Origin: Hormiphora californensis
Lineage: Eukaryota; Animalia; Ctenophora
Reading direction: 5' to 3'
Assembly (NCBI GenBank): GCA_020137815.1
Contig: CM035350.1
Span: forward strand, 7,874,001 to 7,938,000
Length of the DNA stretch: 64,000 nt
Positions 17,166 to 47,317 of this stretch are shown piece after piece. Numbering within the stretch: the stretch's first letter is position 1; each line of letters starts with the position of its first letter. The notes under the pieces are model-generated. The model was not told the origin of the DNA. It did not search any database and saw only the letters and a list, made by a program, of their open reading frames with translations. Position numbers and translations under genes: made by a program.

Positions 17166-18346
17166 CAAACTTTTCAACACTACTTTAAACAAATTAATTT
17201 GAGCAGGTAGATATGGTGATGTGATAGCCCCTATGGGCAGACCGTGCGATATGACAGTTATTCCAGTACGTCAAGAGGAGCTGACTCAGGCTGATTTGGA
17301 TTGGTATGCGAGCCGGATCCTGACCATGGTCAAGTATGCAGGGATTCCTTCACCGGATTTAACCAGAAAGTTAGGGAGTAGCCCTGAGGATATCAGGGAA
17401 ATACCGACATCTTTCAATATCCACTCATCCCACACGAAACGTGATTTGGCATCTGTATTAGAAGATGTATTTATGTCGACCTTGCCACTTCTAAAGTACT
17501 TCCAACATCGTTTCAACGTCGAGAAGTCGCCTGAGTTGGAATTAAAGGAAGAAAGAGATGAACTGTTGAGAAAGAGTTTGGAGTTGCAGAAAAAAGAGGA
17601 GATATTGAGAGTTGAGATGGATGACCTATTGAGAAAGACTATTAGGTTACAAGAGCAGGTCATTGAGCTTCAGGACACTCAGCTACATCGAGTAACCGAA
17701 ACAGTACAGAAAGATCTGCGCTCTTTCTCAACTGTCTTGACGCAGAATTGTAGGTCTGCTCTTGCACCGAAAAATATCAAGAAAGATGAAGGGAAAGCTC
17801 ATGGCAAAAAAGTTTATTCGAGTCCAGATCCAGACAGATCCAAAAATCTGATGGTGTTTGGTCTACCGGAAGTTGAGGCGGAATCTGAATCTGTGTTGAA
17901 ATGTGAGATAGAGAATGTTTTGGCTGAGCTTGATGAGAAACCTATTGTTGTAGCTAAAAGGGTGGGTTTGAAACGGGAAGGAAGGGAGAGACCCGTGATC
18001 GTGAAGCTACAGAGTAGAGAAATGCTGCTGAGCCTTCTCCAGAAGGCTAGGCAGTTGAAACAGTCCGAATCGTACTGCGGTGTATACTTGTCAAGAGATA
18101 TGTCACTCGCAGAGAGAACGGAGAGGAGGGAACTCCACCTTACATTGAAGGAGTTAAGGGAATCGAATCCCGAAAGACAATTTCGGATACGGAAAGGAGC
18201 GATAAACTTTTCATAGAATATCTTTATAAACTGGACTCTTAAATGGACTCATATCTTTGATCAACCGTTTTTTGCCCACAAAAAGGGGCTGATAATTTTA
18301 TACATCAAATTGTGTAAATTATTATATAGATTTAATAAATAAATAA
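17166..18346 (+). mobile_element. ORF1-only LINE-derived retroposed element (HAL1-like organisation)
   Basis: 12-bp direct repeat AGACCTTAATTT at 17154-17165 and 18347-18358, an (AATA)n tail just before the right repeat, a single ORF1p-like CDS, and no ORF2. Confidence 0.65.
17233..18216 (+). CDS. LINE ORF1p-like protein (coiled coil plus RRM/CTD, CR1/L2/L1 ORF1 type), 327 aa
   Basis: Coiled coil followed by NLMVFGLPE...RVG...RPVIVKL...VYLSRDMSLAER, the motif series typical of non-LTR ORF1 proteins. Confidence 0.8.
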   Translation: MGRPCDMTVIPVRQEELTQADLDWYASRILTMVKYAGIPSPDLTRKLGSSPEDIREIPTSFNIHSSHTKRDLASVLEDVFMSTLPLLKYFQHRFNVEKSPELELKEERDELLRKSLELQKKEEILRVEMDDLLRKTIRLQEQVIELQDTQLHRVTETVQKDLRSFSTVLTQNCRSALAPKNIKKDEGKAHGKKVYSSPDPDRSKNLMVFGLPEVEAESESVLKCEIENVLAELDEKPIVVAKRVGLKREGRERPVIVKLQSREMLLSLLQKARQLKQSESYCGVYLSRDMSLAERTERRELHLTLKELRESNPERQFRIRKGAINFS

Positions 18347-28927: not shown

Positions 28928-30458
28928 TCAATCATCGTAATCTAAAGACCAATCTACATCAGATTCAACATCTGTGTCCGTACTAAATCGAGCATTTTCC
29001 TGAAGAGGCTCATTTTTAGTTTCATGTTGAATTTGTCCAAACAATATGGCACAAATAAGAAAGACCATTCCTCCGACTGAGAAAAACTCAAACTCATTTC
29101 CAGTAATCCCGTATACAATTATGTAGGGAGATAAGAGGGTGATTGCATGTCCGGAAGAGAATATGAACCCAGTTGCAAGTGCCGGACTGATGTTGGGTAT
29201 ATCTCTTGAATGAACAGGGACACGATAGACATTGATCCGTGATTTAGCGCCAGACCCATCGATATCTTCATGATGAGCATTTCCTTACCATCGCACCACA
29301 GACAGGAGAGAAGGGCTGCAGCAGTAGCAATATAGAGGGTAATCACTGCTGGCTTTCTTCCAACTATCTGGGCCAGGGAGAGACCTGCTACAGTGATTGC
29401 TATACCAAAGATGTAAGCCTTCGTCAAGGAGAAGAGGTTGCTGTCAGAGAGCCCCTTGCAATCATCAATTTCATCCTCTATCGTGGCGTTTTCAGCCGCA
29501 CAATAGGACCCCTGTGGAAAGAGATGGTATTAGTTTCCCTCAGACAAAGTTAGTTCTAAAACATTGAAAAAAGCCTCCCATATATGTATATATTCACCTT
29601 GATTATGAAGGGTATTGCAATGTGAATTGTGGAAGATATCAGATTCTTCAGCAGGAAAACAGCCAGTACAATTAGAGTTGTCTTCTCGAATTCCGGTGTA
29701 AACAACTGCCCAATCTGACCCCTGTTGACGCCCCGTTTGTGTCGAATGAGAGAGGAGACATCCTCCTTTCCATTCCTCATGTATATCTCCCTCAACAGCC
29801 CACACCCTCCTCTGTCCTCCCTGACACCAGGAGGTATCGTGGTGACTCCTCCAAGAAGATGTAGATTATGAGAGGGGTAATACATGGGACTATCATCCAA
29901 AACAGCAACATTCTCCAACTGATGTGTTCATGATCCAAATGGCTGTCATTGCGGCACACGTCGCACCAATCTGACCTGACACCATTAGAGCCATCTTGAC
30001 AAGGAAACGGTACCGACGGGGGGTTATTTCCAGAATCATACACAATGAACTGGGTTTGATAAAGGTAAAGAAGAATAGACATGCTCCCCTACTGATTAGA
30101 AACAGTGTAAAACTGGTTTGGAAAGTAGCCAGAAACCCACTAATAATCATGAAGAGCAGTCCATAAAGGATAACCTTGCGGCGCCCATACTTATCGGATA
30201 TCACTCTCCCGCTAGACCCCCGACAATAAAACTGGTGGATCCCACCATGAGCATGGTCAGAATTTCCTTGTTGCCAAGCGACCACTCACACTGGACACTT
30301 GGCAGGGTCAGTCCGATAGTCATGATTATCTGGACTTCTGTGAAAGACACAACACACGCAGCTAGAAGGTATAGGATCTGGACCCGGCCAAATCCCGCCA
30401 TCTCAATAGCACTGTCCACTGTTATGTACTGCCGCTTCCGCAGTAGCTGTCTGTCCAT
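28928..30458 (-). pseudogene. SV2/SVOP-like MFS transporter with at least 4 frameshifts (pseudogene or indel errors)
   Basis: GFGRVQ, SDKYGRR (motif A), EITPRRYR, EESPRYL and EIYPTSVR are spread over different frames (track ORFs starting at 30458, 30285, 30082, 29918, 29427). One short intron lies at ~29514-29598. Confidence 0.75.
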
Positions 30459-31712: not shown

Positions 31713-32987
31713 ATGTCACTTCTCCTCGATGTACTGTACCTCTTGTTGTTGGTGGGAGGCACCTTGGCCCAGAGCGAGGATCCCTTTGCAGAGTTTGATA
31801 CCGACGAGGCTGTTCTCGTGGAGCAGGATGACTATGACATCATTGAGGTGGGTGTAAAACTGGTGGTTAATTTATTTGTAACATGTGGGTGTAAAACTGG
31901 TGGTTTAGTTTAGTTTGTAATTCTCCTTCATTACGTACATAAAGTTTATGTTTACTAAGATAAAAACATGCTCGTTTATATGAGGCCTTTAATTTTAGGA
32001 TGTCATGATATTTGTATGAACGTGCGTGTCGTATATCACATATTAAGCTTGGAGTTTATCTCCCCTTCGTTAATCTCACTCCATCCCTATTCCAGTCGGA
32101 AGTAGTAGAAGAGCCGCCCCCTGTGACGTCAGACCAACAAATGATTGACGATGACGTTGACACGGGTGATGACGTCACGATAGAGGACGAGGATTTTGAG
32201 GGTGTGGAAACGAACGAGAAACCCGCACCGGGGGGAGGGAATAAAGAACTTAACATTATCAAGGGCCCGATTAATATGAAGGGGCAATGGGAGGACTATT
32301 ATCTCGAGATAATTGGACTAATTGGGGTGTTTGTTTATGCACTTAACTTCTATACCGGTAAAGCTATCAATAACCGGTTGGCTAATGCCTGGTTCGATCA
32401 CCACAAGAAGTTATTGAGCGAGGCGTTCTGTATTGTGGGGGATGATGGTGTCAGTAAGGAAGTTAGCGATGGTATCTTGGTGAAGGAGAGTGAGAACAAG
32501 TTTGTGGTGTGGTGTACAGGTCGGATGGGCTGTGAGGGGATCAAGATCGAGATCAAATTGCTACGTCGACAGGATCTCATCTCTCTGATTTCCCAGTTGT
32601 TCAAACCTCAGTCTGATACAATAACCATCACAACGTACATGGCACCGGATGATATGGACAGTATTGTACTGGCGATAATGCCCAAGAAGGGCCTCAAACG
32701 GCTCCAGCAGGAAGTACAGGACCTGGCCCATTTTGCCACCGAGAGGAAGATAGAGAGTTATGATCTGCCGAGTACACTGGGTATCCTGGTGGAGTTTACC
32801 GAGGTCGCTAACGATTTACTGACTACCCCCGTCTGCAGGACCATCACCGAGAATATTGATGTGTTCGATTCCATTCATTTCTCCGATTACTACACTGGTT
32901 TCAAGATCTCGCAAGAGGGCCAGGTGGAAACGGACCGACCTAAACCCATGAAACGGCTCATCTTCAACTTTGTTATTCCCGGACATG
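31713..32987 (+). CDS. CCDC47: CCDC47 (PAT complex subunit), exons 31713-31847 and 32096-32987; 3' part not seen (gap)
   Basis: Signal peptide, acidic DPFAEFD region, TM (YYLEIIGLIGVFVYALNFYTGK), then N..LA.AWF, IVGDDG, WCTGR..C, L.RRQDL, IHFSD. Confidence 0.9.
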
Positions 32988-33516
32988 GTAAGCCATTATT
33001 TAGCAGCTTATTGCCCCAGATTATCGTCATATGCAGCGTGACAAATTGTACTGTCACTTTCCTAACTCATTCTGCCTCCTCTGAACCGATCATTAGTTCC
33101 CACTGTTGTCTTCCCTCTCTCTCTCTCTCTCTCCCTCCCTCTCTATCTCACTTTCTATCTCTCTCACTTTAATAACTGCAATTGTTCCAGTCGTGTCTAT
33201 AATATGAGTAAAAATAATGCCCCCCCCCCCCCATTATAATACTTCTCATAGGACACATTAGTTGTAACACTGTTGCCAACAATCATGAGAGAGTATATAT
33301 AGAAGAGGAGAGAGAGAGAGAGAGACGAGCCCCAGAGACAGCAATGAGAGAGATAGAGATGGAGACTATTAGAGGAGAGAGAGAGAGGAAAATGTCAGCT
33401 ATTCTCATATATTAGATCGGAGCTATTTACGTGCAGTACAGTAAACTCTTCCTATATCGTTTCCGCAGCTCCGAATCACTCTTCCGCATCTCTCTCTAGC
33501 TCTCTCTCTCTCTCTG

Positions 33517-33550
<34 letters not shown>

Positions 33551-34582
33551 NNNNNNNNNNNNNNNNNNNNNNNNNNNNNNNNNNNNNNNNNNNNNNNNNN
33601 NNNNNNNNNNNNNNNNNNNNNNNNNNNNNNNNNNNNNNNNNNNNNNNNNNTATGGAAAATTTTTCAAAATTTGCCCACCTTAAAGTTTTACCCCAATCAA
33701 CATAATTGGTTAAAAATAAATTTGGTTTCGAACCAAACTAAGAACATTCTTTTAAAAAATTCCTTTGGGTATTCGAAAGTTTTTCACTAAAGAACCCGGC
33801 ATATTTGAATTATAGCTTTTTCTAATTTTTTTATGACCCGAGTAAACTTTTTTTTTGGAGGCCCATTTCTCAGTGACAAAACAAAGATTGGATGTTTTAT
33901 TACATCTTGAACGATATGTAATCGTCCAATGAACAAGCTTGATGCAAAAAAACATCACGCCGGTACCATTTTTAAGAGATACAGCAACTTTAGTACTAAA
34001 ACTCGTAAATCGCGATTTTCCAAAGCGGCAACAGGAGTGGCGTAGAGAAAATAGCCTACTGGGAACCGAGAACAGCCATTATTATATACCGATATCAGAC
34101 ATGACATTCCGATCCAAAATCGCATGAGAAAAACGGTGGTGATGTCCATTTTGCTCTATCTCAAACCATTTTCCCATAAAAGCCAAACGAAAATATTTAC
34201 TGGACAGCCTAATATTTTCTCTTACTTTCTTTTTCGGTAGGCAACTACTTTCACCTTCATTTTCATTTTCAGCCTGCTCAACCTTTCACTTTCATTATGA
34301 TAGAAGTCGTTGGGACGAATGGCAGGGTGTTAGGCCACCTGCTGCTGGCACGGTAGAGAATTTGAGAGACCCCGTGAGGGCGAAATAGGGAGAGAGACTA
34401 GAGAGATATGAGAGAGAAAGTGGGGGAGAGAGAGAAACGGTCCTCTCACTTTCGTTTCAGCTCAACTCCCAAGGATCATTATAACAGCTAATGTTGGGAC
34501 GAATAGCAAGGCGATGAGCCACCTGCTACTGGTTGTGGTAGAGAATATAGGAGAAGGGATCCCATCCCTAGGGAGAAAGGGA

Positions 34583-34729
<147 letters not shown>

Positions 34730-35234
34730 GGAGAGGGAAAGATATAGGGAGAGAGAGAGAAGGAGTGAGAGAGAAAGAGAGTAGAAAGCGAGAAAGGAGA
34801 AAAATAACATGAGAGCCTTTTGTTAGAAAACTCAACAAACACCACTGAGTCAGCAGGTAAACACCACACAACATTTCGCACATGCAGTAATCAGTATTCA
34901 CCCATCAATCCCCTTGCCTACCAACCATAACAACTACTCAATTTGCACGTGAAAATTCTGGAAGCCATTTAATATAGTTAGATGATTTATGTTCTAAATA
35001 TAATATGAATTTCCCTGCCGTGTGAAGCTCTGAAGAAACCATGGCTAGATTATCTGTGTCAGAAAATTTCACGCCACACATTTCCTGAAAATGCGTCAAT
35101 AAAGTGTTTTATGAAGGAGCAGCTCGTTACTGTGTCCACGGCTCTTTAGTTGCTACCCCGTTGCCCCTCACAACAAAATGGGACATTTTCGGTCCCTCGA
35201 TCTACCGATTAGTTAGTGTTTAGTTAGTGACTAG

Positions 35235-35394
35235 TGAAATGAATGAAGTATTGAATGGATGAGTATAATGTTTTGGAGTCGAGTAGGTACTAAGATGACA
35301 ACAGCTAGATTCACCAAACAAGAAGTGTCTTATCTATAAAACATTGCTCACGCATTGCACATGACATAATATAAAATATAACCTATACATCACA
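35235..35394 (-). repeat. 3' LTR (160 bp)
   Basis: Base-for-base identical to 46577-46736 by visual comparison. Confidence 0.95.
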
Positions 35395-35396
35395 TA

Positions 35397-35405
35397 TCCT
35401 TCCCT
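35397..35405 (-). other. Polypurine tract
   Basis: AGGGAAGGA, 2 nt upstream of the 3' LTR on the minus strand. Confidence 0.8.
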
Positions 35406-35583
35406 AAAAAATCAAAAAATACAGAAATATATATATATAATATGAGTGTCCATGTATCAAAACAATCGCATCTTGATAAAACATAAATCAATAAACTTAA
35501 AATATCTTTAACTAATTAATAATTATAACACTATTTAGAAATCCTGTAAATCATATACCGGTATCTTATTCTAACTTTATAAT

Positions 35584-37185
35584 TTATATTTTCCCGGTTT
35601 CTCTGAGATGGAAAATATAATAAGAACTTGATAGAACTTGATTAAACCATACTGAAATTTCCGCTTGACTCTGCGGTGCCCTATTAGAACTCTTTAGGTT
35701 ACTCTTTATATAATCAATGGCCTCTATGAAGAAATCAAATCGCCTGAAAATAAACAACTTTAATTCTTCCTTTAGAACATCCACAGGTTTGGATCTGTGG
35801 GATGTATGCTGCTTTAAAATTGACACTGGAACAAACAATTTAGGGCCACGTCCGAAAGACCTTTTCGTGATGTTGGCCAGAATCTGTACTCTATCTAATA
35901 CTACCAGTAAATCTGAAAAACACTGTATGGGGGCCGATAGCTCGGAGTGGAGGGTGCCCCACCAATCCTCTGTAATGTTATCTAGAAACTCCTTTATAGA
36001 ATCCAACTCCAAATTCGCACTGTAACTGGGTCCCCACTCTTTAGGCCGCAGAGAGTGAACCTCTGGGTCGATCTGTACTTCACTCATAACCTGTAAAATA
36101 GAAGCGTGAGTAGCTCTTCTTTTATCCCCTGTATTTGACAACTTTAAACCATCTAATTTATCTTTAAGGACCTTTAATGTTCTCTCCACCTGCTCTTGGG
36201 AGTTAAATTTAGAAAACCTGTAACCATTGATCTGAGATCGCCCTGCATTGGTGATCCTATTTCTAGCATCAACCCCCGGGTATGGCTCAACTCTAGACGA
36301 CCTGGAAGACACTACAGAGTAGGTCACGTTAGTAGCCGACACGTTAGACGCGGCGGCTGACGCAAATGTAGAACCCCCAAAATGGGCAGGGGTGTTAGCC
36401 TGTAATGGAACGTCAGTATCCCCGGAAATCTTCCGGTCCTGTAGATTAGCTGGGGGTCGCTTCCCCAAGATACCCTGTAAAAACTCTATCTTCTCTGTAA
36501 TCTCCTCTCTTTCGAGAAGGAGGGCCGCTAAATTCTCTTTAGCCTCCTTCTTCTCGTCGGAGGTCATATCCGGTAACTCAGGGTGCCTGAGGGGAGGGAA
36601 TTCCGGTAACTTTACTTTATTCTTTATGTTAGCCTTTACCGCCTCGATGTACTTGGCGGGTACTTCATACTTACGAACTGGACAAATACGGTCCAGCTCC
36701 CTGTAATCCCCGACTAAGAAGTCAGGTTCGCAGACTTTAACAAACTCTACCTGTATTTTACACACCTCTAGAGACCATCTGGCCATTTTCCATGTAAATG
36801 GCTTCTCTGAACTGTAACATCCTGTAAGAAAATTCTGTATATTGGACAGTCTGTCCCTAGTGGAACTGCCACTAGTCAGACTGTACCGCTGTAGTGCGAA
36901 GTCGGCCTGGACCTTGTCACGGTCCGACATCGCACTCCACCCTACCTGTAGACACCTAGCCACTGGGGCTAGTTTTGATGGAACTGTAAATTTGTCACCT
37001 GTATCAGAGGCAACACTGCCGTCTGTAACTACTCCTGTACCGGCCGAAGCCCAACTATCCTTATCTGTATCGTCCTTACCTGTAGTGGTGGCTCCTGCCA
37101 CCGATACTTCACCTGTAGCCCCTAACCGCTCCATCTCCTCGTCCACGTTCCAGTCCAGTGCATCCGGTGGCTGGTTGCTGTCCAT
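35584..37185 (-). CDS. Orphan accessory ORF4 of the provirus, 533 aa
   Basis: Intact ATG-to-stop ORF between env and the PPT, on the same strand; no recognisable family, signal peptide or TM. Confidence 0.8.
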   Translation of the reverse strand: MDSNQPPDALDWNVDEEMERLGATGEVSVAGATTTGKDDTDKDSWASAGTGVVTDGSVASDTGDKFTVPSKLAPVARCLQVGWSAMSDRDKVQADFALQRYSLTSGSSTRDRLSNIQNFLTGCYSSEKPFTWKMARWSLEVCKIQVEFVKVCEPDFLVGDYRELDRICPVRKYEVPAKYIEAVKANIKNKVKLPEFPPLRHPELPDMTSDEKKEAKENLAALLLEREEITEKIEFLQGILGKRPPANLQDRKISGDTDVPLQANTPAHFGGSTFASAAASNVSATNVTYSVVSSRSSRVEPYPGVDARNRITNAGRSQINGYRFSKFNSQEQVERTLKVLKDKLDGLKLSNTGDKRRATHASILQVMSEVQIDPEVHSLRPKEWGPSYSANLELDSIKEFLDNITEDWWGTLHSELSAPIQCFSDLLVVLDRVQILANITKRSFGRGPKLFVPVSILKQHTSHRSKPVDVLKEELKLFIFRRFDFFIEAIDYIKSNLKSSNRAPQSQAEISVWFNQVLSSSYYIFHLRETGKI

Positions 37186-37246
37186 CCGCGACTGCCGTAG
37201 TAAATTCCTAAAAAAGTCTACAAGGGAAGTTGGAGCGTTAATGTAT

Positions 37247-38971
37247 TTATCCTGTAGTCGAATTTACGGAATCTAGATCTGTATCTGTTCCTTTATCTAC
37301 AACCATGTTATAATCGACTATGTATTGCTTTAATCTATATCTAATAAATACTATTACTCCTATAATGCCACCAATATAAAGCAGTATAATTATTCCTATA
37401 GCTATACTTAAACCTATATTGAAATGGTCTTTATATTTATTGTTAAACAACGGAATAAAAGCACTGGAAAGGGTGGTATTATACTTTAAGCTTAACTCAT
37501 TAATATGCTGTATAACTTCGTCTGCTGTATACCTAAAATGCAATCTAGACAAAGTTAAATTGTAAGAAGCCAAGACAATGGGCTCACTCGTTACTGATCT
37601 AGATAATATTTGTACTCCGCACACAATTAAACTCGAAAAATCTTCCCATTTAACAAAAGAAGATTTCGTTGTGGGGAGAGATGGGTGAATAACGTTAAGT
37701 TCATCCTGTACTACGTAACTAGAGCTATCTAGATCTCTGAATAAAATACCAGTAGAAATAATGCTGTAAGTGCACCTAGGCCTGCACGTCTCTGTAATCA
37801 GCGAGCAACTAAATGTTTTCGACTGTATACACGATGTACTGTTTACTATAGTAAATGATGAGCATACATGCAAAGCGTTATGTTGAGAGCAACTTGATAT
37901 ATCTATATCTATAAACTCATTACCTTTAAGAACTACATATTTAGGGAGGTCAAATCTACCACACTCATTTCCCTTGATCGAAAAACCTACTTGATGCGAC
38001 TTAAATAACGGGAAAATATGCTCAGACTCTTTAATAACTGGTATATGGATAACAAAATGAGCTAAGGAAAAGTCTTCATCTAAACTCAGTAGCGAAATTT
38101 TTGCAATAGAATACATTAAATGTGGCTCTTTATAAAAAATTGATTCTTTAATCTCTGTGTGCTCCTGTACCATTAATTTTAACGTAATAGGATCAATTAA
38201 CTTAGGGGTAAGAACTAAGTCATTCTGGCCTGATAAGGCCGGGAACAAAATATCGTCGATGATCCTAGAACACCTCCAGAACAACGACTCTAAATCCCTA
38301 ATTAAATCGTTAGCATCACTGTAGCATGTTTTAGAATCCATGTATCGTATAAGTATCTCATCTACCGATTTAACGTAAGAAAAGATGTTACTTTGCACTG
38401 TATTTAGCTCTACCTCTTGATTATTAACTACTTCTCGAATCTCGTTAATTACTTTAGAATTATCCTTAATGTGACTCTTTATGCTACTAATTCTATTTGA
38501 ATTAATACCGCTAAACACCAGGCTACCTATGGTGCCTACTCCCAACACAAAATCTGTTAAAGATCTACGATCTCTGTGCCGACTCACTGTATCTACTTTA
38601 TCCTGTATAATATAAGGCGCTAGTGTGCGTTTACGAACAGCTATAAACTCTTCCGCTCTACTAATCCAAGCTAAGGCTGAATAATTCATGGACTGTATAT
38701 CGTGAAAATTATTAGACTCCCTTACTAAGTGCCTAATGCGGGGAAAATTAGAGGGAGGTTTGCACGACAAAGCATCTGTATTAGCTTCAACTTGATGTTT
38801 TAACTTGTGTACTAAATCTGGAAGCTTTATAAAAACTGATATAACTGATTCTTGATTAGATATGGCTACTTTACCAACTTGATCTACTGCTAGTCCTCGC
38901 CCATGATCTAACAAAGTATGACCACAATTAGGCGGGACTAAAATACTTATAAGTAGTAGGGCAATAAGCAT
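37247..38971 (-). CDS. env: Envelope class I fusion glycoprotein (F-type), ~574 aa from ATG 38971
   Basis: Signal peptide MLIALLLISILVPPNCG, furin site RHRDRR, fusion peptide SLTDFVLGVGTIGSLVFSG, heptad repeat, Cys-rich block, sequons NYS/NST/NLT/NTT, C-terminal TM and short tail. Confidence 0.9.
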   Translation of the reverse strand: MLIALLLISILVPPNCGHTLLDHGRGLAVDQVGKVAISNQESVISVFIKLPDLVHKLKHQVEANTDALSCKPPSNFPRIRHLVRESNNFHDIQSMNYSALAWISRAEEFIAVRKRTLAPYIIQDKVDTVSRHRDRRSLTDFVLGVGTIGSLVFSGINSNRISSIKSHIKDNSKVINEIREVVNNQEVELNTVQSNIFSYVKSVDEILIRYMDSKTCYSDANDLIRDLESLFWRCSRIIDDILFPALSGQNDLVLTPKLIDPITLKLMVQEHTEIKESIFYKEPHLMYSIAKISLLSLDEDFSLAHFVIHIPVIKESEHIFPLFKSHQVGFSIKGNECGRFDLPKYVVLKGNEFIDIDISSCSQHNALHVCSSFTIVNSTSCIQSKTFSCSLITETCRPRCTYSIISTGILFRDLDSSSYVVQDELNVIHPSLPTTKSSFVKWEDFSSLIVCGVQILSRSVTSEPIVLASYNLTLSRLHFRYTADEVIQHINELSLKYNTTLSSAFIPLFNNKYKDHFNIGLSIAIGIIILLYIGGIIGVIVFIRYRLKQYIVDYNMVVDKGTDTDLDSVNSTTG

Positions 38972-39566
38972 CAACACACGTTGCAAAGTCTCAGAAGAAG
39001 AGAAAAATGGAAATAAACTAAAATTATCTTGCTGCAACGGAAGGGTTATATGATAAACAGGGTGTGCTCGTGAAACTTACTGCGCTGTTACCACTTATCT
39101 CTTAATCTACAAATTACTGCTCTTGCAGAGCGTGATATAATAAAATTATGCTGCTGCTCAGCACCTCGGCTGAGTCGTTATCGGCTAAATGAAGTTTTAA
39201 CCTAATTAATTAAGTAAAATATACAGTGGGATAAAAGAGAAACTTTAACACTTACTAAAGCTTTGTTAAGAGAGAGCTCAAAAAGTTCCATAAGATAGGA
39301 ATAATTCTAAGATAATCTGTGAGAAAAAATGTTAAAATCTTTCGGTACCTCTGTGCTGAAAGGGGTTCTGTGAAATATGATAAGAAGAGAACTGCGTCAC
39401 CTATCACTGTCAATACCATGTGATTGTTCAGTGACAGGCTGACCAATTATCTCCAAGACCCTATTACAAGCACTAAAATCTTGAGAATAAAACTAAAGAT
39501 TAGAGGTACGTGGAAAAGTGAATTATTTCACTTGAGTGGGAGAAAAAGAAGTTAATTAACAAAAAA

Positions 39567-40479
39567 TTAACTTTTCTTTTTAAGACTAACCTTGCTCTTT
39601 ACTGAAGGTATTGTCTTACTAGGTTTAGACTGCTGTCTCCCGTTATCTGTATCCGCTTGAAGAGTCTTTTCCTTTACCGGATCACTCTTATTGGATCCTG
39701 AAATCTTGGTTGATTTCTTGGTATACGGAATACTTGAACTCTCAAAGTGGCTGGTGGGTTGAGGATTCTTCCTCAAAGTATAAGGACCTTTATTCCTACC
39801 TTTATCTTTAGACGGAAGTAAACTACTCTCTGACTTAGTTCTACTTCTCGTTTTAAGACCTGTATAAGTACTAGTAGACAGGGATGAATCATCCTTCACC
39901 TGATTTGTTGATGCTGGTGTTGGTTTTACCGGTGTACTCGTCTCGGCATCAAAGAATTGATCCGGTGACTCGCTATCATCATCATCATCATCAGTTGGTG
40001 GTTCCTGTAATGGGGTTACTTCACCTTGGTTCTGAGGATCAGTTTCATTCTCTGAAGCTGCAATTAGAGGTGTAGGAGGTGATACTGATTCTCCTGGTTC
40101 CTCTGTTGACTCTGCTTCTGGAATCACCTGAACATCTGTAGTTTCGTCATCCTTATCCTGTATTGGAGAGACCTCTTTATCTGTAGTTAGTGTTAAATCT
40201 ATATTCTCACTCTCTTTAGGGGTTTCATGAGGGGGAGGGGGAGGGGGAGGGGGAGGGGGATGGGGATGGGGATGGGGAGGGGGAGGGGGAGGGGGAGGGG
40301 GAGGGTTAGAGGGGTTAGATTTAGGAGAATTTGGTGGGGAGGGGGATTTTGAAGGATTGGAAGGGGAGGTAACCCTTGATCTGGTGAATGGGGCTGTTGG
40401 AATACTGTCCCATTCAGAATCCGTGTAGTCATCTGTAGTCTCATAACTTGAAGCTCGATACCTTGTTTTCCCTGTATTA
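39567..40479 (-). CDS. C-terminal low-complexity tail of Pol, detached by the MITE insertion
   Basis: Removing 40480-41402 plus one TATTA copy gives a continuous frame ..KIDN-TGKTRYRASSYE..PPPP..DVQVIPEAEST..KKKS*. Confidence 0.85.
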
Positions 40480-41402
40480 TTAGGGCGTTTCAGAAATAAC
40501 TTCGCTTCGCGATATTTTGGGATCTATGATAGATAGAGACTTCTACCCAGTTTTATCTTGTTCAATGGACGATTCTCTTCTTGGGAACGTGTTTTGAATA
40601 GTTTACGGCAATGTTTAGTACCAAAAATTGGGTGATATGATACCAGAAGTCATGTTGCCGCTGAACGGGGTTCCCAGAGTTTTTCAAACGCCGCTGGAGA
40701 GGAGCTGATATGGATTTTTGGCTTTCTGTAGCGCTCAATCGATAGCCCATCGTCTAAGGATGAGATATATATGCGATTTGGGCCTCGACGCGTTGCTCAA
40801 AAACCTCTTGGACAGTAAGTGTAACATAAAAAGTCGAAAAAATGCAAAATTTCACCTCAATTTTTGGCTTGTTTTGGGGGTATGTTCGAAAACGTCAATT
40901 ATTAACTTTTATATGTCAACAAATCAAATAATTGGCTTGACTATGTGATAGAACTTCCTTAGAGCTATCTTTTGCTGCAAAGTTTTTGATTATGAGCTAC
41001 TCATATAAAAGGTGAAGGGACCCGGAAGTGAAACTTTCCAATTCTTACCGAATTTTTTTGGAGGCCGATTGCTCAGCCGCAAATAAAGTTAGGATCTTCT
41101 ATTACATCTTAAACGATAGATAATTGTCTAATTAACAAGCTTGATGCAATAAAACATCCCACAGATTCAATTTTCAAGAAGTACAGTAGTTTCAGCACTA
41201 TGCGCGTTTTTCCCGTTCAGCGGCAGTTTGAGTTAAAGGTGTTTCCGGGTTCGCTGAGAGCCACCCCTGATCAAAAATTTCAAAATAACTACGGTTGTGA
41301 GTAGTCAAGACTTCAAATAACACGCTACAAAAGTGTATATGTGGATATCTTCAATACTTTTTGAAAATATCGGGAGACGAAGTTATTTCTGAAACGCCCT
41401 AA
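40480..41402. mobile_element. 923-bp MITE inserted in pol
   Basis: Perfect TIR TTAGGGCGTTTCAGAAATAACTTCG; TATTA duplicated at 40475-40479 and 41403-41407; a diverged relative of its internal sequence sits at ~33850-33960. Confidence 0.9.
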
Positions 41403-44400
41403 TATTATCAATTTTATCTATATTGGGAGAGTATTTGTTAGGGGTATAATGTTTCATTTTTGAAATATTAATTACTCTCTCTGTATCTCCTATTTGTACC
41501 CTGTATAAATGCTGATTAATTACCTCGTTAACCTTATATGGTCCTGACCACTTATGTCCAAATTTATGTAATGGTACATTAATTAAAACCATACACTGCA
41601 TTCCTGCTTCAAAATAAGGACCTCTCGCATTCTTATCATAACTGTTAGCCATGAACTGAGCTTGTTTCTCAACTTGAGAGCTAACCTTCCGAACTGTATC
41701 TCGTACCTTTAGATAAACTTTATAAGCCTCGGTTTCATAATCTTTAAATTCCTTATCTTGAGGGTCTGGAATAAACAAATCTCGTGGTGAACGAGCTTCT
41801 CTACCAAACACCAAGAAATTAGGTGAAAATCCGGTACGATTAGATCTCATACAATTAAGGGTAAATACTATCCAATCTATATACTGGTCATATTTATGAA
41901 AATCTTTATTTCCCATTATAGCTCTAAAACATGTATTTATTCTACGGTGGGAAGATTCAACTCGGCCTTGAGTGGAAGACTTCCACGGAGTCGAGCGAAC
42001 ATTACTAATACCAAAAACTTTACATGTCTCTTTAAATAATTTAGACTCAAAACCTGAACCCTGATCATGACTAATTGAATCAGGTACACCAAATCTGGAA
42101 ATCCAATGCTTTAATATAGCCTTTATTGTGTGGTCAGCACTAGTTGATCGTACTGGTACACAAACGATATATGAACTGTAAAGATCAATCATAGTGAGCA
42201 AGGCAACATTACCAGATGGCGTTCTGCCCTTTTGTGGCTCGAGATGATCTATCTGTAGGCATGCATTGAATGATTCACAGAATTGTGGCTTTAACGGCGC
42301 TTTAAGTGGCCTATTAGTGGCTTTAACCTGATGACATGTGATACAAGCACCTACATACAACTTTATTTCCTGCTTTATTTTATAGAAGTGAAAACGCCTA
42401 GAAACTTGATCAACCGTGTTTTTAACACCTGGGTGACAACTACCCATGAGATTGTGAAACATGTAGATAGCACGCTTTATGAGAGTATGTGGAACTACTG
42501 TTACCCAATTATAATTATTACTCTCTTGATTAAATACTTTATATTTTAACAACCCTTTACTATACTTTAATAGTTCAAATTTCCGATAATAATACCAAGT
42601 CTCACGGTTACTTCGTATTGGATCAATATCTTCTGGTTTCGATCCAACCGAGACCCAAGATATAACTTCAGATAATATCATGTCATTTTGATACTCTCTG
42701 ATGATATCATCCGTGGTGACTGGATCTAGAGACTCATTTTCACAATCTGGCTCTGAAACTCTGAGTACTCTCTCAAACCTTGACACCATATCTCCTTCAT
42801 TTTCTGAATTGCTATTTACCTCATTACCGTTATCAACATCATAATTTTCACAATTTTCACTTTGCTCTTCATCTGTATCCTGTACCGATATATGCCGCAC
42901 AGAGTTCACAGTCTGTGTGCCGACCGTGTTCTCCGAGATGCCGTAAGCATATCGACTGAGATAATCTGGTATCTGTATCTCCTGCGATTTACCAGAAACA
43001 TGATGGATTGTAAACTGGAAACCTGAGAGATCTGATAACCTTCTCTGCATATATGCATTATCTTTACTAAAAATAGTATTCAAATTCTGTAAACTCTTAC
43101 AATCAGTATAAACTGTAAACTTTGTTCCCTGTAAGTATAATCTCCAATTCATAATAGCTGAATGCAATGCTAAAAACTCTAACCTAGTTGCACCCCATCT
43201 CTGGAAATGCTTAGGAAGCTTCTTAGAGTAATATGATATCACTTTACGTTTTTTAGTCCTTGAATCTAACTGAGACAAAACTGCACCAAGTCCCTTTTTT
43301 GACGCATCCAGAGTCAAAACATACGAAGAGTATTCGTCATTAACACTTGGAATACCCAAAATAGGAGCAGTAGCTAAGCAAGACTTTAGCTTGTCAAATG
43401 AAACTTGACACTCTTTAGTCCACTTAAACTCTGTAATAGATTTACCTGTAAGGTCATATAATGGAGCTGAAATTGAAGCAAAATCTCTAATGAAAAGTCT
43501 ATGATAATTAACCATTCCCAAAAACTTTTGAACTTGCTTCACACTAGTGGGAGGTGGTAAATTTTTTATAGCTTTAACTTTATCGTGATCTACCGCTATT
43601 CCTTCTTTAGAAATTCTAAGACCTAAAAACTTAACTTCCTGTTGAAACAATTTGGTCTTCTTTGGAGAAAGTTTCAAATTGCCAAAAGTTAATCGGTCTA
43701 GAACAAACCTCAATCGCTTTAGATGCTCTGGATAAGTGTTACTACAAATAAGTAAATCATCTATGTATAGTAAGAGTGCTTTAAACGGTACTTTTTGAAA
43801 TAAACAAGCCATAGCCCTTGAAAACTCACTACTTGACGAAGTTTGACCCTGTATCATACGGTTGAACATGTATCTCTTGCTATCATAAGTAAATGCCGTG
43901 AGATGTCGACTTTTCTCTTCTAGCCCGATCTGTGTGAATGAACTCACAAAATCGAGTGAAGACAAAATCTCTGTCTCCGTAAGACGGTCAAATACATTTC
44001 TAATCTTAGGTAGCTCATAATTATCCTGTATACATTGTGAATTTAAACTTCTCGCATCTGTAACAAAACGATAAGTAGATCCTGTAGAATTAGATTTGGG
44101 TACCATAAACACTGCTGAATTCCATAAACTGTACTTACATGGAGAAATCTGGCCTGACTTACATAATGCAGCGATTTCCTGATCCATGTGGGGCTTTATT
44201 TTGTACGGAATGGGCCTAGATGGAACCCATTTAGGTACAAAATCACGCTTTAAATTCAATTTTGACTCATAAAATGATGCACAACCTAGATCATTCTTAT
44301 CACGAGCAAAACAATGACTATACTCTGTAACTAACTCTTTCAATTGCTCTCTGTAGAGTGCGGGAACATGAGAAAGGTTGTCAATTTGCAATTGCTCATG

Positions 44401-45342
44401 CAGCTGATTGACATCTTTCCATTTTCCTGTCTCAATAGTCTCCTCTACCGTACATGCAGTATCTAGACGGGGAATGTCTAGATCGGCATTATACCACTCT
44501 TCTTTACCCGTTACTCTTTTCAAAGATCTTACTTGATCTGTTTCACCTTTATTAATCGGCTCAAAAAATCCAAGTAGCTGATTTCTGTATACCTTTATTG
44601 CATTATCTGTGGGGTTGACGCAATGCACGTGAATTTTATTACCTTTAGAGTAAGATAATGTTCCGGTCACTAACAAATTTGATTTGCATGGTAAGCTACG
44701 ATAAGGTTCAACCACTCCTTCATAATTGTTGTCACGCTGTTTCTTAGATAACGGAAAGTTCCCAAGAACAAACATGGAACAATTAGGTGGAACTGTAACA
44801 GTCTGAGATAATCTAATTCTAACTTTATTCTTTATAACAAGGGGTTTTAATTGACTCTCACACACTCTATTAGAGATTCTAACTGTATTAGATGGAACAT
44901 CAATAATCATTTCCATGGATCTGATAACATCCATACCGAGTAAGAAATCGGTATCAATATGATCACATACGATGAAAGTTTCAATACTACTAGCACCATT
45001 TATCTCTATCTGTAAATCTATCTCACCTCTCATCGGTATAAGCTTCTGACTAAGACCTGCTATAAGCTTATTAGTGGGTTTTACATTATCAGCTAAACCT
45101 ATAATATGTACGAGTCTAGTAGCAACTAAACTGACATGAGCTCCTGTATCTACTAAATAATTTACTGGTTGATCTCCACAAAACCCATTCAAAACAATAT
45201 CACGTGAGAGAGGTCTCCTTTGTCGAGACTCATTCGCACATCTATTGACGGAGCTAGATGGTTCTTGCGAATGTGAATCAACGGTAGGGTTGCCTGTAGA
45301 TATAAAATACCTCTCTCTAAAGAAAATTCTGTTTATGACCAC
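41383..45342 (-). CDS. pol: Pol polyprotein (protease, dUTPase-like spacer, RT, RNase H, integrase), truncated by the MITE
   Basis: LVDTGA; YIDD; LDASKKGLGAVL..LEFLAL..TDCKSL; HHCC (H..SCHPG..CITC); D-D-E (IDH, HDQG, RVES); WSGPY. Confidence 0.95.
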   Translation of the reverse strand: MVINRIFFRERYFISTGNPTVDSHSQEPSSSVNRCANESRQRRPLSRDIVLNGFCGDQPVNYLVDTGAHVSLVATRLVHIIGLADNVKPTNKLIAGLSQKLIPMRGEIDLQIEINGASSIETFIVCDHIDTDFLLGMDVIRSMEMIIDVPSNTVRISNRVCESQLKPLVIKNKVRIRLSQTVTVPPNCSMFVLGNFPLSKKQRDNNYEGVVEPYRSLPCKSNLLVTGTLSYSKGNKIHVHCVNPTDNAIKVYRNQLLGFFEPINKGETDQVRSLKRVTGKEEWYNADLDIPRLDTACTVEETIETGKWKDVNQLHEQLQIDNLSHVPALYREQLKELVTEYSHCFARDKNDLGCASFYESKLNLKRDFVPKWVPSRPIPYKIKPHMDQEIAALCKSGQISPCKYSLWNSAVFMVPKSNSTGSTYRFVTDARSLNSQCIQDNYELPKIRNVFDRLTETEILSSLDFVSSFTQIGLEEKSRHLTAFTYDSKRYMFNRMIQGQTSSSSEFSRAMACLFQKVPFKALLLYIDDLLICSNTYPEHLKRLRFVLDRLTFGNLKLSPKKTKLFQQEVKFLGLRISKEGIAVDHDKVKAIKNLPPPTSVKQVQKFLGMVNYHRLFIRDFASISAPLYDLTGKSITEFKWTKECQVSFDKLKSCLATAPILGIPSVNDEYSSYVLTLDASKKGLGAVLSQLDSRTKKRKVISYYSKKLPKHFQRWGATRLEFLALHSAIMNWRLYLQGTKFTVYTDCKSLQNLNTIFSKDNAYMQRRLSDLSGFQFTIHHVSGKSQEIQIPDYLSRYAYGISENTVGTQTVNSVRHISVQDTDEEQSENCENYDVDNGNEVNSNSENEGDMVSRFERVLRVSEPDCENESLDPVTTDDIIREYQNDMILSEVISWVSVGSKPEDIDPIRSNRETWYYYRKFELLKYSKGLLKYKVFNQESNNYNWVTVVPHTLIKRAIYMFHNLMGSCHPGVKNTVDQVSRRFHFYKIKQEIKLYVGACITCHQVKATNRPLKAPLKPQFCESFNACLQIDHLEPQKGRTPSGNVALLTMIDLYSSYIVCVPVRSTSADHTIKAILKHWISRFGVPDSISHDQGSGFESKLFKETCKVFGISNVRSTPWKSSTQGRVESSHRRINTCFRAIMGNKDFHKYDQYIDWIVFTLNCMRSNRTGFSPNFLVFGREARSPRDLFIPDPQDKEFKDYETEAYKVYLKVRDTVRKVSSQVEKQAQFMANSYDKNARGPYFEAGMQCMVLINVPLHKFGHKWSGPYKVNEVINQHLYRVQIGDTERVINISKMKHYTPNKYSPNIDKIDNIRAFQK

Positions 45343-46546
45343 TTGATTCTCTATAAACGTTATTAATAGTTTTCTTTAAACCTGGACAATTCTTCATATA
45401 ATGCTCACCTTTACAAATATAACACTCTAACTTACGACTACGGGAATCAGATCTACCGATATTACTATATCGCCCTCTACTGTTAGAGCGACCTCTGTAT
45501 GAACGATCTCTATAACTGAATCTATCCGAAGATCGTCTTCGGCCTCTGGACCTGTCCCAGGAACGGTCACGAGAACGATCGCGTGAGCGATCCTGAGATC
45601 GATCGCGAGAACGATCGCGAGAACGATCACGGTAGCGACCTTGAGAACTATCCCGGTAACGACCTTGAGAACGATCACGAGAATTACCTCTATACCTTTC
45701 CCTAGAATCGGATCTATTTCTGTATCCCGATCCACCTGCAGTGTTTGATTCAGAACTATAAGGTGTAGAACTCCGATAATTACCTTTATAATTGCGGTTT
45801 CTTGGCCTTGATCTATCAGAACTAAATCTTACCTCTGTAGTGGAACTCTTCATGATACTTGATGTAGAAGAAGATGTTGCTTCCTCCTCTTGATCCTTCG
45901 CGAGACGCTCAAGATGCTTGGCCTGCCTCACTGCGGTCTTGAATGAATCTAGATCCACGTTTTCGTTCAACTTGGTCCGGATACCTGGATCTGAAATACC
46001 TTTAAGGAATACCAACAAGCACTGGTCTTCAGCTGACTCCTTATCTTCTGGATAAGCTAGAGAAGCCTTTTTCCGCAATTTAAAAACATAATCTGAAATG
46101 GATTCGTTAGTCAACTGTTTACAAGCGTTTAACTGACGCCTCAGAGAAAACCTCTGTTCCCCGTAAATAGCTTTCTTGAAGAGTTCAAGAAACCGTTCGT
46201 GACTCTCTTGATCGTATTCATCAACTGTAACAGACTTAAACAACTGGTAGGTCTTATCATCCTTTATACTCTGCATAAACATTGGAAACTGCCTACTACT
46301 ACCTAGGCGAGCAACTTGACAATACTCTGCATATCTCTCGCAATGCAACATGAAATCATCTCCTTTATTGAAAGATGGACGTTCTGTCTGATTGGACAGA
46401 TTTAACAACTGAATAGCACTTGACAACTCAACTTCTCTACCCGAGCTTTCTTGAAGCTTGGATTCAAGCTCACTCTTGAAATCTGGATCATCCTTTATTA
46501 ACTGATCGACGCGCTCACTTATCTGTGTCTTAGTGAGATCCGTCAT
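45317..46546 (-). CDS. gag: Gag (capsid-like region, RS-rich linker, CCHC zinc knuckle)
   Basis: KQLTNESISDYVFKLR MHR-like motif, RDRS repeats and CYICKGEHYMKNC; the ATG is ~30 nt from the 5' LTR. Confidence 0.92.
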   Translation of the reverse strand: MTDLTKTQISERVDQLIKDDPDFKSELESKLQESSGREVELSSAIQLLNLSNQTERPSFNKGDDFMLHCERYAEYCQVARLGSSRQFPMFMQSIKDDKTYQLFKSVTVDEYDQESHERFLELFKKAIYGEQRFSLRRQLNACKQLTNESISDYVFKLRKKASLAYPEDKESAEDQCLLVFLKGISDPGIRTKLNENVDLDSFKTAVRQAKHLERLAKDQEEEATSSSTSSIMKSSTTEVRFSSDRSRPRNRNYKGNYRSSTPYSSESNTAGGSGYRNRSDSRERYRGNSRDRSQGRYRDSSQGRYRDRSRDRSRDRSQDRSRDRSRDRSWDRSRGRRRSSDRFSYRDRSYRGRSNSRGRYSNIGRSDSRSRKLECYICKGEHYMKNCPGLKKTINNVYRESSGHKQNFL

Positions 46547-46563
46547 CAAACAATTGGTTTTTA

Positions 46564-46574
46564 ATCAGGCTCCA
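46564..46574 (-). other. Putative primer-binding site
   Basis: TGGAGCCTGAT begins 2 nt after the 5' LTR, and TGG pairs with a tRNA CCA end. The tRNA identity is not established. Confidence 0.65.
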
Positions 46575-46576
46575 AT

Positions 46577-46736
46577 TGAAATGAATGAAGTATTGAATGG
46601 ATGAGTATAATGTTTTGGAGTCGAGTAGGTACTAAGATGACAACAGCTAGATTCACCAAACAAGAAGTGTCTTATCTATAAAACATTGCTCACGCATTGC
46701 ACATGACATAATATAAAATATAACCTATACATCACA
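46577..46736 (-). repeat. 5' LTR (160 bp)
   Basis: TGTGATG...CATTTCA on the minus strand, identical to the 3' LTR. Confidence 0.95.
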
Positions 46737-47317
46737 CTAGTGTATCAAAGATTATGTGATTTTCGAATTCTAACCGTCCTTAGGACGGTCCTAATGGCAG
46801 TTATTGTCATTGAGTGCAGTACGCAGTTGTGTTTGAGTGAAGTGAGTGGGTGAAGACGTGAAGTGCGTGCATTATGTAGGTAGTTGCCTGACTTGTACGT
46901 AAGAAGTAATTGAGTCACCCGGGTTGGTTTTTATCGAGTGATTATACACTTCCAGCAAACTATATGACAATGGGTGATCGTTTGGTGGACCATATTGTTT
47001 ATTATTACCATGGTAACCTTCCCATGAAGCTATGGTGAGTCTAATTCGATCATAAATACCATTACACGACAATCCAATATGGAAGTGTTGATGAGAAACT
47101 CGCCGAGAGGGTGGGAGAGAGATATAATAATTAATAGAGCTACCTGCTACAGCTGTTTGTGGCAAAGAATGTGGGGAGCCCATGAGAGACAACTTTCATT
47201 TTCATTTTCAGCCGCTAATGCGATCAGCTTCCACTTTCACTTTCACTACCGAAGCCGTTGAGACGAATGGCAGGGTAAGCCACCTGCTGCCGGTTGTGGT
47301 ACTGGTAGAGAATTTTG

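Follow-up and report, generated by a model that had tools for sequence, protein, structure and literature searches.

Introduction

Ty3/gypsy elements with an F-type env have already been reported from non-insect animals by Chary & Hayashi (eLife 2026; PMC13524379), including six F-type entries from ctenophores. The occurrence of env-bearing gypsy elements outside insects, which was part of the preliminary description of the present locus, is therefore not new. The same study argues that the F env is ancient in errantivirus-type elements, and its RT clade X holds just three elements, all from ctenophores, including Bfor_1 and Mlei_1. This catalogue of early-branching-animal elements looked just for gag, pol and env; the elements are presented with three ORFs, and the main text contains none of the terms 'ORF4', 'extra ORF', 'accessory' or 'unknown function'. 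As to other LTR retrotransposons, the CERV protein of Caenorhabditis elegans Cer1 is described as required for export of the genomic RNA (PMC10309623), and the env of Oikopleura Tor elements as being expressed by splicing or from an internal promoter (PMC4402516). The literature that we searched contains no report of an env-bearing gypsy element with a fourth ORF, and none of such an ORF from ctenophores. One paper pairing 'errantivirus' with 'ORF4' was found to deal with baculovirus ORF42/46 and was unrelated.

Architecture of the element

The window (the whole stretch of DNA that was analysed, 64,000 nucleotides) contains two LTRs of 160 bp with TG...CA termini on the minus strand, the 5' LTR at 46577..46736 and the 3' LTR at 35235..35394, which are identical at 160/160 bases. 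They are bordered by CTAG target-site duplications, for which strand does not apply, at 46737..46740 (5' LTR side) and 35231..35234 (3' LTR side), sitting within an ACTAGT palindrome. On the minus strand, a primer-binding site (PBS; 46563..46574) lies 2 nt past the 5' LTR, and an 11-nt polypurine tract (35395..35405; 10/11 purines) adjoins the 3' LTR. Four large frames, gag, pol, env and ORF4, measure 415, 1330, 609 and 559 codons from stop to stop, all on the minus strand. The anatomy given in the preliminary description (identical LTRs, CTAG duplication in an ACTAGT site, PBS, polypurine tract and four same-strand ORFs) was thus borne out, as was a recent insertion.

The gag frame (45317..46546, minus strand) encodes 409 aa from its ATG, with an RS-rich tract and a C-terminal CX2CX3HX4C knuckle; it had no capsid family match and is called gag from its position and the knuckle. 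The pol frame (41383..45375, minus strand) encodes protease (DTGA), RT (YIDD), RNase H and integrase (HHCC, D-D35-E, GPY) in the order PR-RT-RH-IN, with all catalytic motifs present and with RT and integrase full-length within a single continuous ORF. Its best PDB match was Ty3 Gag-Pol (E 3e-81), the foamy virus and MLV RTs following at about 1e-34 to 1e-28. The Ty3/gypsy identity proposed earlier is supported by both the domain order and this match.

The PBS shares 11/12 bases with Mlei_1 and 10/12 with Bfor_1, both ctenophore elements. Of the 1512 catalogue rows, two contain its last nine bases; both are ctenophore F-env elements that likewise have a 2-nt offset. A 7-base core is present in four rows, including one annelid and one mussel. 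Because the PBS matches just two ctenophore entries among the 1512, the element likely belongs to the ctenophore 'ancient errantivirus' clade X/R, a placement made from the PBS alone, and the apparently non-insect host that had been suggested is likely on the same ground. The present family may already figure in the eLife catalogue as a three-ORF element, the two being set apart here by description. The internal regions of Bfor_1 (11.8 kb) and Mlei_1 (12.2 kb) are longer than the 8.4 kb needed by gag-pol-env here and so have room for a further gene; this spare length suggests that a fourth gene may hide in the catalogue.

The predicted envelope gene

The env frame (37247..38971, minus strand; 574 aa) shows a hydrophobic N-terminus, an RDRR furin-type site (133-136), a fusion-peptide-like stretch, a heptad region, 12 cysteines and a C-terminal TM segment (525-543). 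These are the sequence features expected of the F- or gB-type env of an errantivirus, a name that Chary & Hayashi use operationally for env-bearing Ty3/gypsy elements: a position 3' of pol, a signal peptide, a furin site, a fusion peptide and a TM segment. In the Atlas comparison, the top clusters were Fusion_gly PF00523 (0.97, 221-222 of 256 features) and the ten best family matches concurred, at a recognition value lower than the level of known families. This agrees with the F-type env of the preliminary description. One homologous cluster shared 26% identity across 85% of the length and the same layout, and a profile search returned P0001 alone. As a single sequence, env had neither a Pfam match nor a significant PDB match; a two-sequence profile gave just weak matches to coronavirus HR1 in PDB (E 0.04 and above), and the AlphaFold model had a pLDDT of 33. 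No related loci were found among viral contigs and metagenome contigs. From its sequence, we predict that the protein looks like a paramyxovirus F-like fusion glycoprotein.

Between env and ORF4 lies a short spacer (37186..37246, minus strand), in which AG dinucleotides at about 37220 and about 37210 resemble splice acceptors; it is a candidate cis- or trans-splice acceptor, and spliced leaders, which would cap a trans-spliced message, are in use in ctenophores. The element as a whole contains 27 donor-like and 29 acceptor-like signals, too many to pick one splice.

The fourth gene

ORF4 (35584..37185, minus strand) encodes 533 aa without TM segment, arranged as an acidic low-complexity N-terminus, a Cys-bearing domain, a coiled-coil-like region (206-242), a linker and a conserved C-terminal domain. 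Its 559 codons compare with a longest stop-free run of 198 codons in 500 shuffles of the region. We compared the element with contigs from runs X5 and X9, which are two studies of one organism (B), and from X10, another sample of organism A. Together, X5 and X9 covered 30/30 bins of the element, and DNA matching gag, pol, env and ORF4 alike is present in this second species. Among the listed differences within ORF4, 10/16 were silent as compared with 4.6 expected (P=0.004). These sites come from mixed contigs: of 847 differences in all, the 40 with the best support were listed, and 16 of them lie within ORF4. A paralogous piece (84%) was found in run X2, and a search of 1.84 billion representatives gave a sole match, the homologous fragment P0006 (50% identical over 103 aa). 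ORF4 is therefore not a capture specific to this copy, as the DNA in organism B, the silent bias and the shuffles all testify, and is likely a genuine family gene retained by selection.

No similarity was found to Pfam, PHROGs or PDB families, to 7993 scored candidates (lengths 293-933), to the element's own Gag or to other frames of the window, and there was no usable Atlas match. The AlphaFold model (pLDDT 35) was uninformative in Foldseek (0 matches at E 0.001). The C-terminal domain had looked, by eye, similar to a Gag capsid motif, but this did not hold up (probability 0.3%). The GC3s of ORF4 (0.45) differs from that of gag, pol and env (0.27-0.34; P=5e-13; env 0.29), the neighbouring host genes being at 0.50-0.58. 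Because of this different codon make-up, ORF4 may have been captured once from another source.

The largest single option for its role, still a tentative one, is that of a soluble oligomeric accessory regulator of RNA export. The coiled-coil-like heptads have 7/11 hydrophobic a/d positions, and one NES-like leucine motif is present (340-349), with P 0.03 for the strictest pattern, chosen post hoc, and 0.10 and 0.36 for looser ones. Neither a classical NLS nor a clear Arg-rich motif for RNA binding was found in ORF4.

Identity between organisms A and B was 92% for ORF4, 94-96% for env and 98.5-99% for pol and gag; in the X5 contigs, it was 91.8% for the 3' half of ORF4, 95.8% for env with the spacer and 99.1% for pol. 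The excess divergence of ORF4 and env over pol and gag is what a factor acting against piRNA, RNAi or chromatin silencing, or otherwise manipulating the host, might show, and a soluble protein with acidic low-complexity regions would be suited to protein binding. We consider such a counter-defence role, in place of export, unlikely: the listed divergence is mainly silent, a pattern easier to reconcile with a 3' module that is older or has been exchanged than with an arms race, and no known suppressor family was matched.

Mononegaviral P proteins have an acidic disordered N-terminus, a central coiled coil and a C-terminal helical domain, a plan that ORF4 recalls. ORF4 might thus be a second gene from an RNA virus, a phosphoprotein- or matrix-like partner of F serving particle assembly or budding, and its position about 60 nt from env and their similarly raised divergence would fit. 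This origin is nonetheless improbable, as the GC3s of ORF4 and env point to separate origins, no virus other than possibly the source of P0006 was matched among the representatives searched, and the F env is argued in the eLife study to be ancient in errantivirus-type elements.

The GC3s of ORF4, close to that of the neighbouring host genes, and the precedent for ORF capture 3' of env could also point to a recently captured passenger, either a host gene or a gene resembling gag or ORF1 from some other transposon, unused by the element. The open frame, the silent bias, the presence in two species and the 84% and 50% relatives make this quite improbable, as does the lack of similarity to the element's Gag and the other frames of the window. 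ORF4 as an accessory regulator of export is the reading carried forward below.

State of the present copy

The 3' part of pol is interrupted by a high-copy non-coding DNA transposon of 925 bp (40478..41402, strand not applicable), which lies 3' of the integrase domains and supplies the pol stop codon. It has 44-nt inverted arms (40475-40518 and 41364-41407) and is most simply read as a terminal-inverted-repeat element of 923 bp accompanied by a TA duplication. Its read depth was in the hundreds to thousands, and a partial copy (78.5%) lies at 33850-33998 in the window. The insertion is absent from the X5 and X9 contigs, which join 40477 to 41403 and in which pol is continuous into a Pro/Ser/Thr/acidic low-complexity frame without Met (39567..40477, minus strand; open over 39567-40523). 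This fifth long frame is likely the cut-off pol tail, of ~300 codons. A second lesion was found in the gag-pol overlap or recoding region (45290..45330, minus strand): pol is +1 to gag in the present copy, and shortly after the gag stop, near 45304, an indel of one base sets this copy apart from the contigs of X5, X9 and X10. The fifth frame, the insertion and the indel were absent from the preliminary description.

The uninterrupted gag-pol and family-typical junction of an autonomous provirus are therefore lacking here. The provirus is young, already damaged and probably not autonomous, and the reading of this copy as intact or self-mobile is not supported; these lesions count, and citing it as an intact or infectious provirus would be unwarranted. 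Yeast Ty elements use +1 frameshifting, and the CTT-TAG at the gag-pol offset could likewise be a working shifty stop and the pol tail dispensable, all catalytic motifs lying upstream of the insertion and the LTRs being identical. An intact, active and infectious copy is very improbable, however, because contigs of three further runs from two organisms share the other state of the junction, the present copy being the odd one. In addition, the depth of run X2 was 25-30 in contigs internal to the element and 53-59 in flank contigs, i.e. about half, a hint of a single copy carried by one haplotype rather than of a burst.

As to mis-assembly, X2 contigs (X2 may be the source sample and is not independent) showed 0 differences over four internal stretches and crossed the ORF4/3' spacer, env/ORF4, tail/env and pol/gag junctions with 0 differences; none of the listed contigs spans the whole element. 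A chimeric assembly is, despite that lack of a spanning contig, scarcely credible for an element framed by a target-site duplication and identical LTRs, crossed at four internal junctions and found in all its parts in organism B. Among the organism B contigs listed, none runs env-ORF4-LTR in one piece. X10 gave gag- and ORF4-side contigs at >= 99% (at least 99% identity) while env, the pol tail and some of RT and integrase were left uncovered; uncovered stretches were given no weight as evidence, and deleted derivatives are no more than a lead.

Discussion

Taken jointly, the anatomy, the assignment to a Ty3/gypsy F-env family and the reading of ORF4 as a real accessory gene appear quite probable. 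By analogy with the family, the 5' LTR would drive a genomic RNA translated into Gag and, via frameshifting, Gag-Pol; reverse transcription would be primed by a host tRNA and integrase would generate the 4-bp duplications. Env, made from a subgenomic message and cleaved by furin, would bring about the fusion of particles with adjacent cells or germ cells. ORF4 would have been captured once from elsewhere, then kept by purifying selection, and would move with env as a 3' module. Oligomerising by its coiled coil, it may aid the export or handling of unspliced genomic RNA, much as CERV does for Cer1 and Rev for HIV; such a need would arise because the element must also make subgenomic env and ORF4 messages. 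The present copy, in which the frames of env and ORF4 are open, is likely unable to make family-normal Gag-Pol and would depend on help supplied in trans.

ORF4 behind an F env would likely be an undescribed accessory regulator and a new part of such an element, and it is a concrete protein, open to testing. If a large conserved gene behind env is confirmed, retrovirus-style regulatory complexity would also have arisen in this lineage. We regard as rather unlikely the broader proposal that the entire ctenophore clade is 'complex', with a conserved 533-aa Rev/CERV-like regulator of new fold behind a paramyxovirus-type env, swapping of env-ORF4 modules between sub-families and infectious movement between species (the pol of the two organisms sharing 99% identity). 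From the preliminary description of a 'complex' lineage with an accessory gene, the fourth gene stands; 'complex' as a new category does not, since accessory genes have precedents in LTR retrotransposons.

The closest described elements, Bfor_errantivirus_1, Mlei_errantivirus_1 and Pbac_errantivirus_2 (RT clade X / IN clade R; PMC13524379), are reported with the same Ty3/gypsy pol, gag-pol-env order and F-type env, and the clade with a similarly long internal region and few copies; Bfor_1 and Mlei_1 also have a near-identical PBS at the same 2-nt offset. The LTRs are 160 bp here as compared with about 575-715 bp in these ctenophore elements. The bdelloid TelKA env, as described, is also F-like; it measures about 600 aa and combines RXXR with a fusion peptide, a coiled coil and a TM segment, and bdelloid elements resemble the present one in having LTRs down to 159 bp and captured extra ORFs (PMC5408684). 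In the bdelloid Vesta and Juno, however, DEDDy and GDSL ORF3s are reported to replace env (PMC5408684), while ORF4 follows env and fits neither family. The Tor elements of Oikopleura are likewise marine, non-insect, gypsy-related and env-bearing, with mostly hemizygous young insertions, but are described with three ORFs and without a fourth gene (PMC4402516). The sORF1 and sORF2 of the Drosophila MDG1 group are accessory Ty3/gypsy ORFs linked to cell-to-cell spread; they are given as 70-110 aa, 5' of gag, in elements without env (PMC11952523), in contrast to the 533 aa of ORF4, which has no TM segment. The proposed role of ORF4 is modelled on Cer1 CERV, reported as a non-Gag, non-Pol accessory protein of 517 aa that has a coiled coil and is predicted to multimerise (PMC10309623). 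CERV is spliced from the Cer1 polyprotein frame, its C-terminal ORF having once been taken for env (PMC10309623), whereas ORF4 is a separate frame placed after an F-type env.

Structure and age of the provirus

The element runs from 46736 to 35235 on the minus strand. Its two LTRs are identical (160 of 160 bases), CTAG stands at both ends within an ACTAGT palindrome, the primer-binding site (PBS) starts 2 nt past the 5' LTR, and the 3' LTR is bordered by a purine tract. Four long frames lie on the same strand: gag (409 aa from its ATG), pol (1330 codons), env (574 aa) and a fourth gene, ORF4 (35584-37185, 533 aa). This confirmed the proviral layout of the preliminary description, including the CTAG duplication. 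The leader is very short, the gag ATG being just 30 nt beyond the 5' LTR (46546-46576); in organism B, divergence is among the highest in this interval and at the LTR edge, where one 392-nt set of contig pieces shows 30 differences.

This copy is young, with an upper bound on LTR divergence of about 1.9% (95%), although the clock is coarse with so short an LTR. Contigs of sequencing run X2, possibly the source sample, showed zero differences over 35365-37059, 37030-37424, 37484-40222 and 41379-46538. Their depth was 25-30 for internal contigs and 53-59 in the flank, and this half depth hinted at a single copy on one haplotype. A contig of run X10 (organism A; 35195-46753) links both flanks without the element, through a diverged junction with 35 other letters; it represents either an allele resembling an empty site or a paralogous repeat of the flank, and hints at insertion polymorphism. 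In one contig of run X5 (organism B), the gag start and PBS are followed by one LTR and then the purine-tract side (46389-46582 and 35254-35411), which can be read as several LTR copies collapsed into one, as a tandem array or as a circle with one LTR. A short dispersed repeat preceding GA microsatellites flanks the provirus on both sides (34292-34532 and 47240-47296).

Gag, pol and env

Pfam domains in the pol frame followed the Ty3/gypsy order (protease, RT, RNase H, integrase zinc, integrase core), its catalytic motifs were whole (integrase D to E spacing, 35 residues), and its top PDB match was Ty3 Gag-Pol; the Ty3/gypsy assignment was thereby upheld. No capsid family match was found for gag, which is named from its position and its knuckle.

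The N-terminus of Env is hydrophobic; a further hydrophobic stretch comes after RDRR (residues 133-136), and a single strong transmembrane segment lies at 525-543. Its top three Atlas clusters were Fusion glycoprotein F0 (PF00523), with a score of 0.97 (221-222 of 256 features), shuffled proteins reaching 0.95 about once in 100; Baculo_F and Gypsy env came next. These features supported an F-type env, as first proposed, but with no Pfam match, no significant PDB sequence match and no confident predicted fold. One unnamed cluster of env homologs (5 members) was 26% identical and shared the layout of this Env.

Lesions in this copy

Pol and env are separated by a non-coding insertion of 925 bp, which has 44-nt inverted arms, and by a proline-rich frame of some 300 codons that lacks any Met. 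In contigs of X5 and X9, which come from two studies of organism B, 40478-41402 is absent and pol continues directly into the proline-rich frame. The insertion is a high-copy repeat, which each of the four runs shows at a depth of hundreds to thousands, and a partial copy (78.5%) is present at 33850-33998. Thus, a DNA transposon inserted into the 3' portion of pol, past the integrase core and GPY motifs, causing an early stop and orphaning the pol tail. We also found a one-base indel near 45304, just beyond the gag stop, relative to contigs of three of the four runs (X5, X9 and X10), X2 agreeing with the window. The pol frame is +1 relative to gag in this copy; other copies would have the usual -1 offset. 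With the nested transposon and the junction indel, this copy is not intact, and autonomy has probably been lost.

ORF4 as a family gene

By its sequence, ORF4 is a real gene: the longest stop-free run in 500 shuffles was 198 codons, compared with 533. Among the 40 best-supported of 847 differences, 16 fell in ORF4; 10 of these were silent, compared with an expectation of 4.6 (P = 0.004), and no stop was created. Contigs of X5 and X9 covered 30 of 30 element bins, and an X5 contig matched the 3' half of ORF4 at 91.8%. ORF4 is therefore found beyond this copy, though none of the listed contigs runs unbroken from env through ORF4 to the LTR. With matching DNA in X5 and X9, ORF4 is not a capture specific to this copy, a possibility raised in the preliminary description. 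A paralogous piece was present in X2 (84%).

Searching 1.84 billion representatives yielded one homolog, a 114-aa fragment (50% identity over 103 C-terminal residues), and ORF4 matched nothing among protein families, the PDB, the Atlas or known folds. Its GC3s was 0.45 versus 0.27-0.34 for gag, pol and env, pointing to a putative separate origin. Identity between organisms A and B was 92-96% in the env-ORF4 half (35553-39560) and 98.5-99% in gag-pol (41403-46368), a contrast that suggests module exchange or a recent transfer of gag-pol between species.

Possible expression and role of ORF4

From family knowledge, the family would replicate as a Ty3/gypsy element and its F-type Env would likely carry it between cells, a spread likewise not demonstrated for these elements according to the accessible discussion of Chary & Hayashi (PMC13524379). 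Env and ORF4 would need subgenomic messages. The spacer of about 60 nt ahead of ORF4 contains two acceptor-like sites, such sites being common (29 across the element); in the accessible portions of the respective papers, ctenophores trans-splice (PMC7986045) and Tor elements have internal promoters (PMC4402516). Three routes are thus possible: cis-splicing, trans-splicing or an internal promoter.

ORF4 has no transmembrane segment; it contains a coiled-coil-like stretch (206-242) and a single leucine-rich NES-like motif (340-349; P 0.03 to 0.36 depending on the pattern), and no NLS was found in its sequence. The closest functional precedent, from the accessible part of PMC10309623, is CERV of Cer1, a large (517-aa) coiled-coil accessory protein required for export of unspliced genomic RNA. 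By analogy, we tentatively suggest that ORF4 might act in RNA export or RNA handling. A counter-defence factor is a less likely reading. That ORF4 is a viral structural partner captured together with env seems improbable, and a mere passenger slightly more so; some other role takes the remaining share. A bolder form of the export reading, with ORF4 as a Rev-like regulator throughout the clade and the lineage infectious, is unlikely.

Other genes in the window

An unbroken 597-aa FAD-linked oxidase frame (14568-16361, minus strand; PF01565 and PF02913) resembles alkylglycerone-phosphate synthase. A CCDC47 (PAT complex) frame at 32141-33172 (plus strand) covers profile positions 1-242 of 326, and the remaining exon was not found within the 64-kb window. 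The 327-aa frame at 17233-18216 (plus strand), with a coiled coil and an 'MVFGLPE' motif, had no Pfam match; we take it to resemble ORF1 of CR1/L2 LINEs. Fragments of a gene for an MFS/sugar transporter (PF00083, PF07690) lie at 29119-30285 (minus strand).

Comparison with known elements

Ctenophore F-env gypsy elements are already known: the Chary & Hayashi catalogue, in its accessible part (PMC13524379), comprises 1512 env-bearing Ty3/gypsy elements, of which 9 come from ctenophores, 6 of these with an F-type env. Env-bearing gypsy elements outside insects are therefore not new. Neither the accessible main text of that paper nor the literature searched on ctenophore or env-bearing gypsy elements, Repbase and GyDB lying outside the search, mentioned a fourth ORF. 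Extra ORFs do occur in LTR retrotransposons, including downstream of env (PMC6431247; further precedents in PMC5408684 and PMC11952523, all as accessible).

A PBS is assigned in 1151 of the 1512 catalogue rows, and the last 9 PBS bases of our element are present in only two, Mlei_1 and Bfor_1, F-type ctenophore entries with an identical 2-nt offset that share 11 and 10 of 12 PBS bases with it, respectively; a looser 7-base core also matches one annelid and one mussel row. RT clade X consists only of Bfor_1, Mlei_1 and Pbac_2 (PMC13524379). Because the 9-base PBS core is common to two of its members, a ctenophore host and a place in this clade are likely for our element, and the family may already be catalogued as a three-ORF element. 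The internal regions of Bfor_1 and Mlei_1 are 11.8 and 12.2 kb, compared with 8.4 kb for gag-pol-env here, so by arithmetic rather than homology both have room for an ORF4-like gene.
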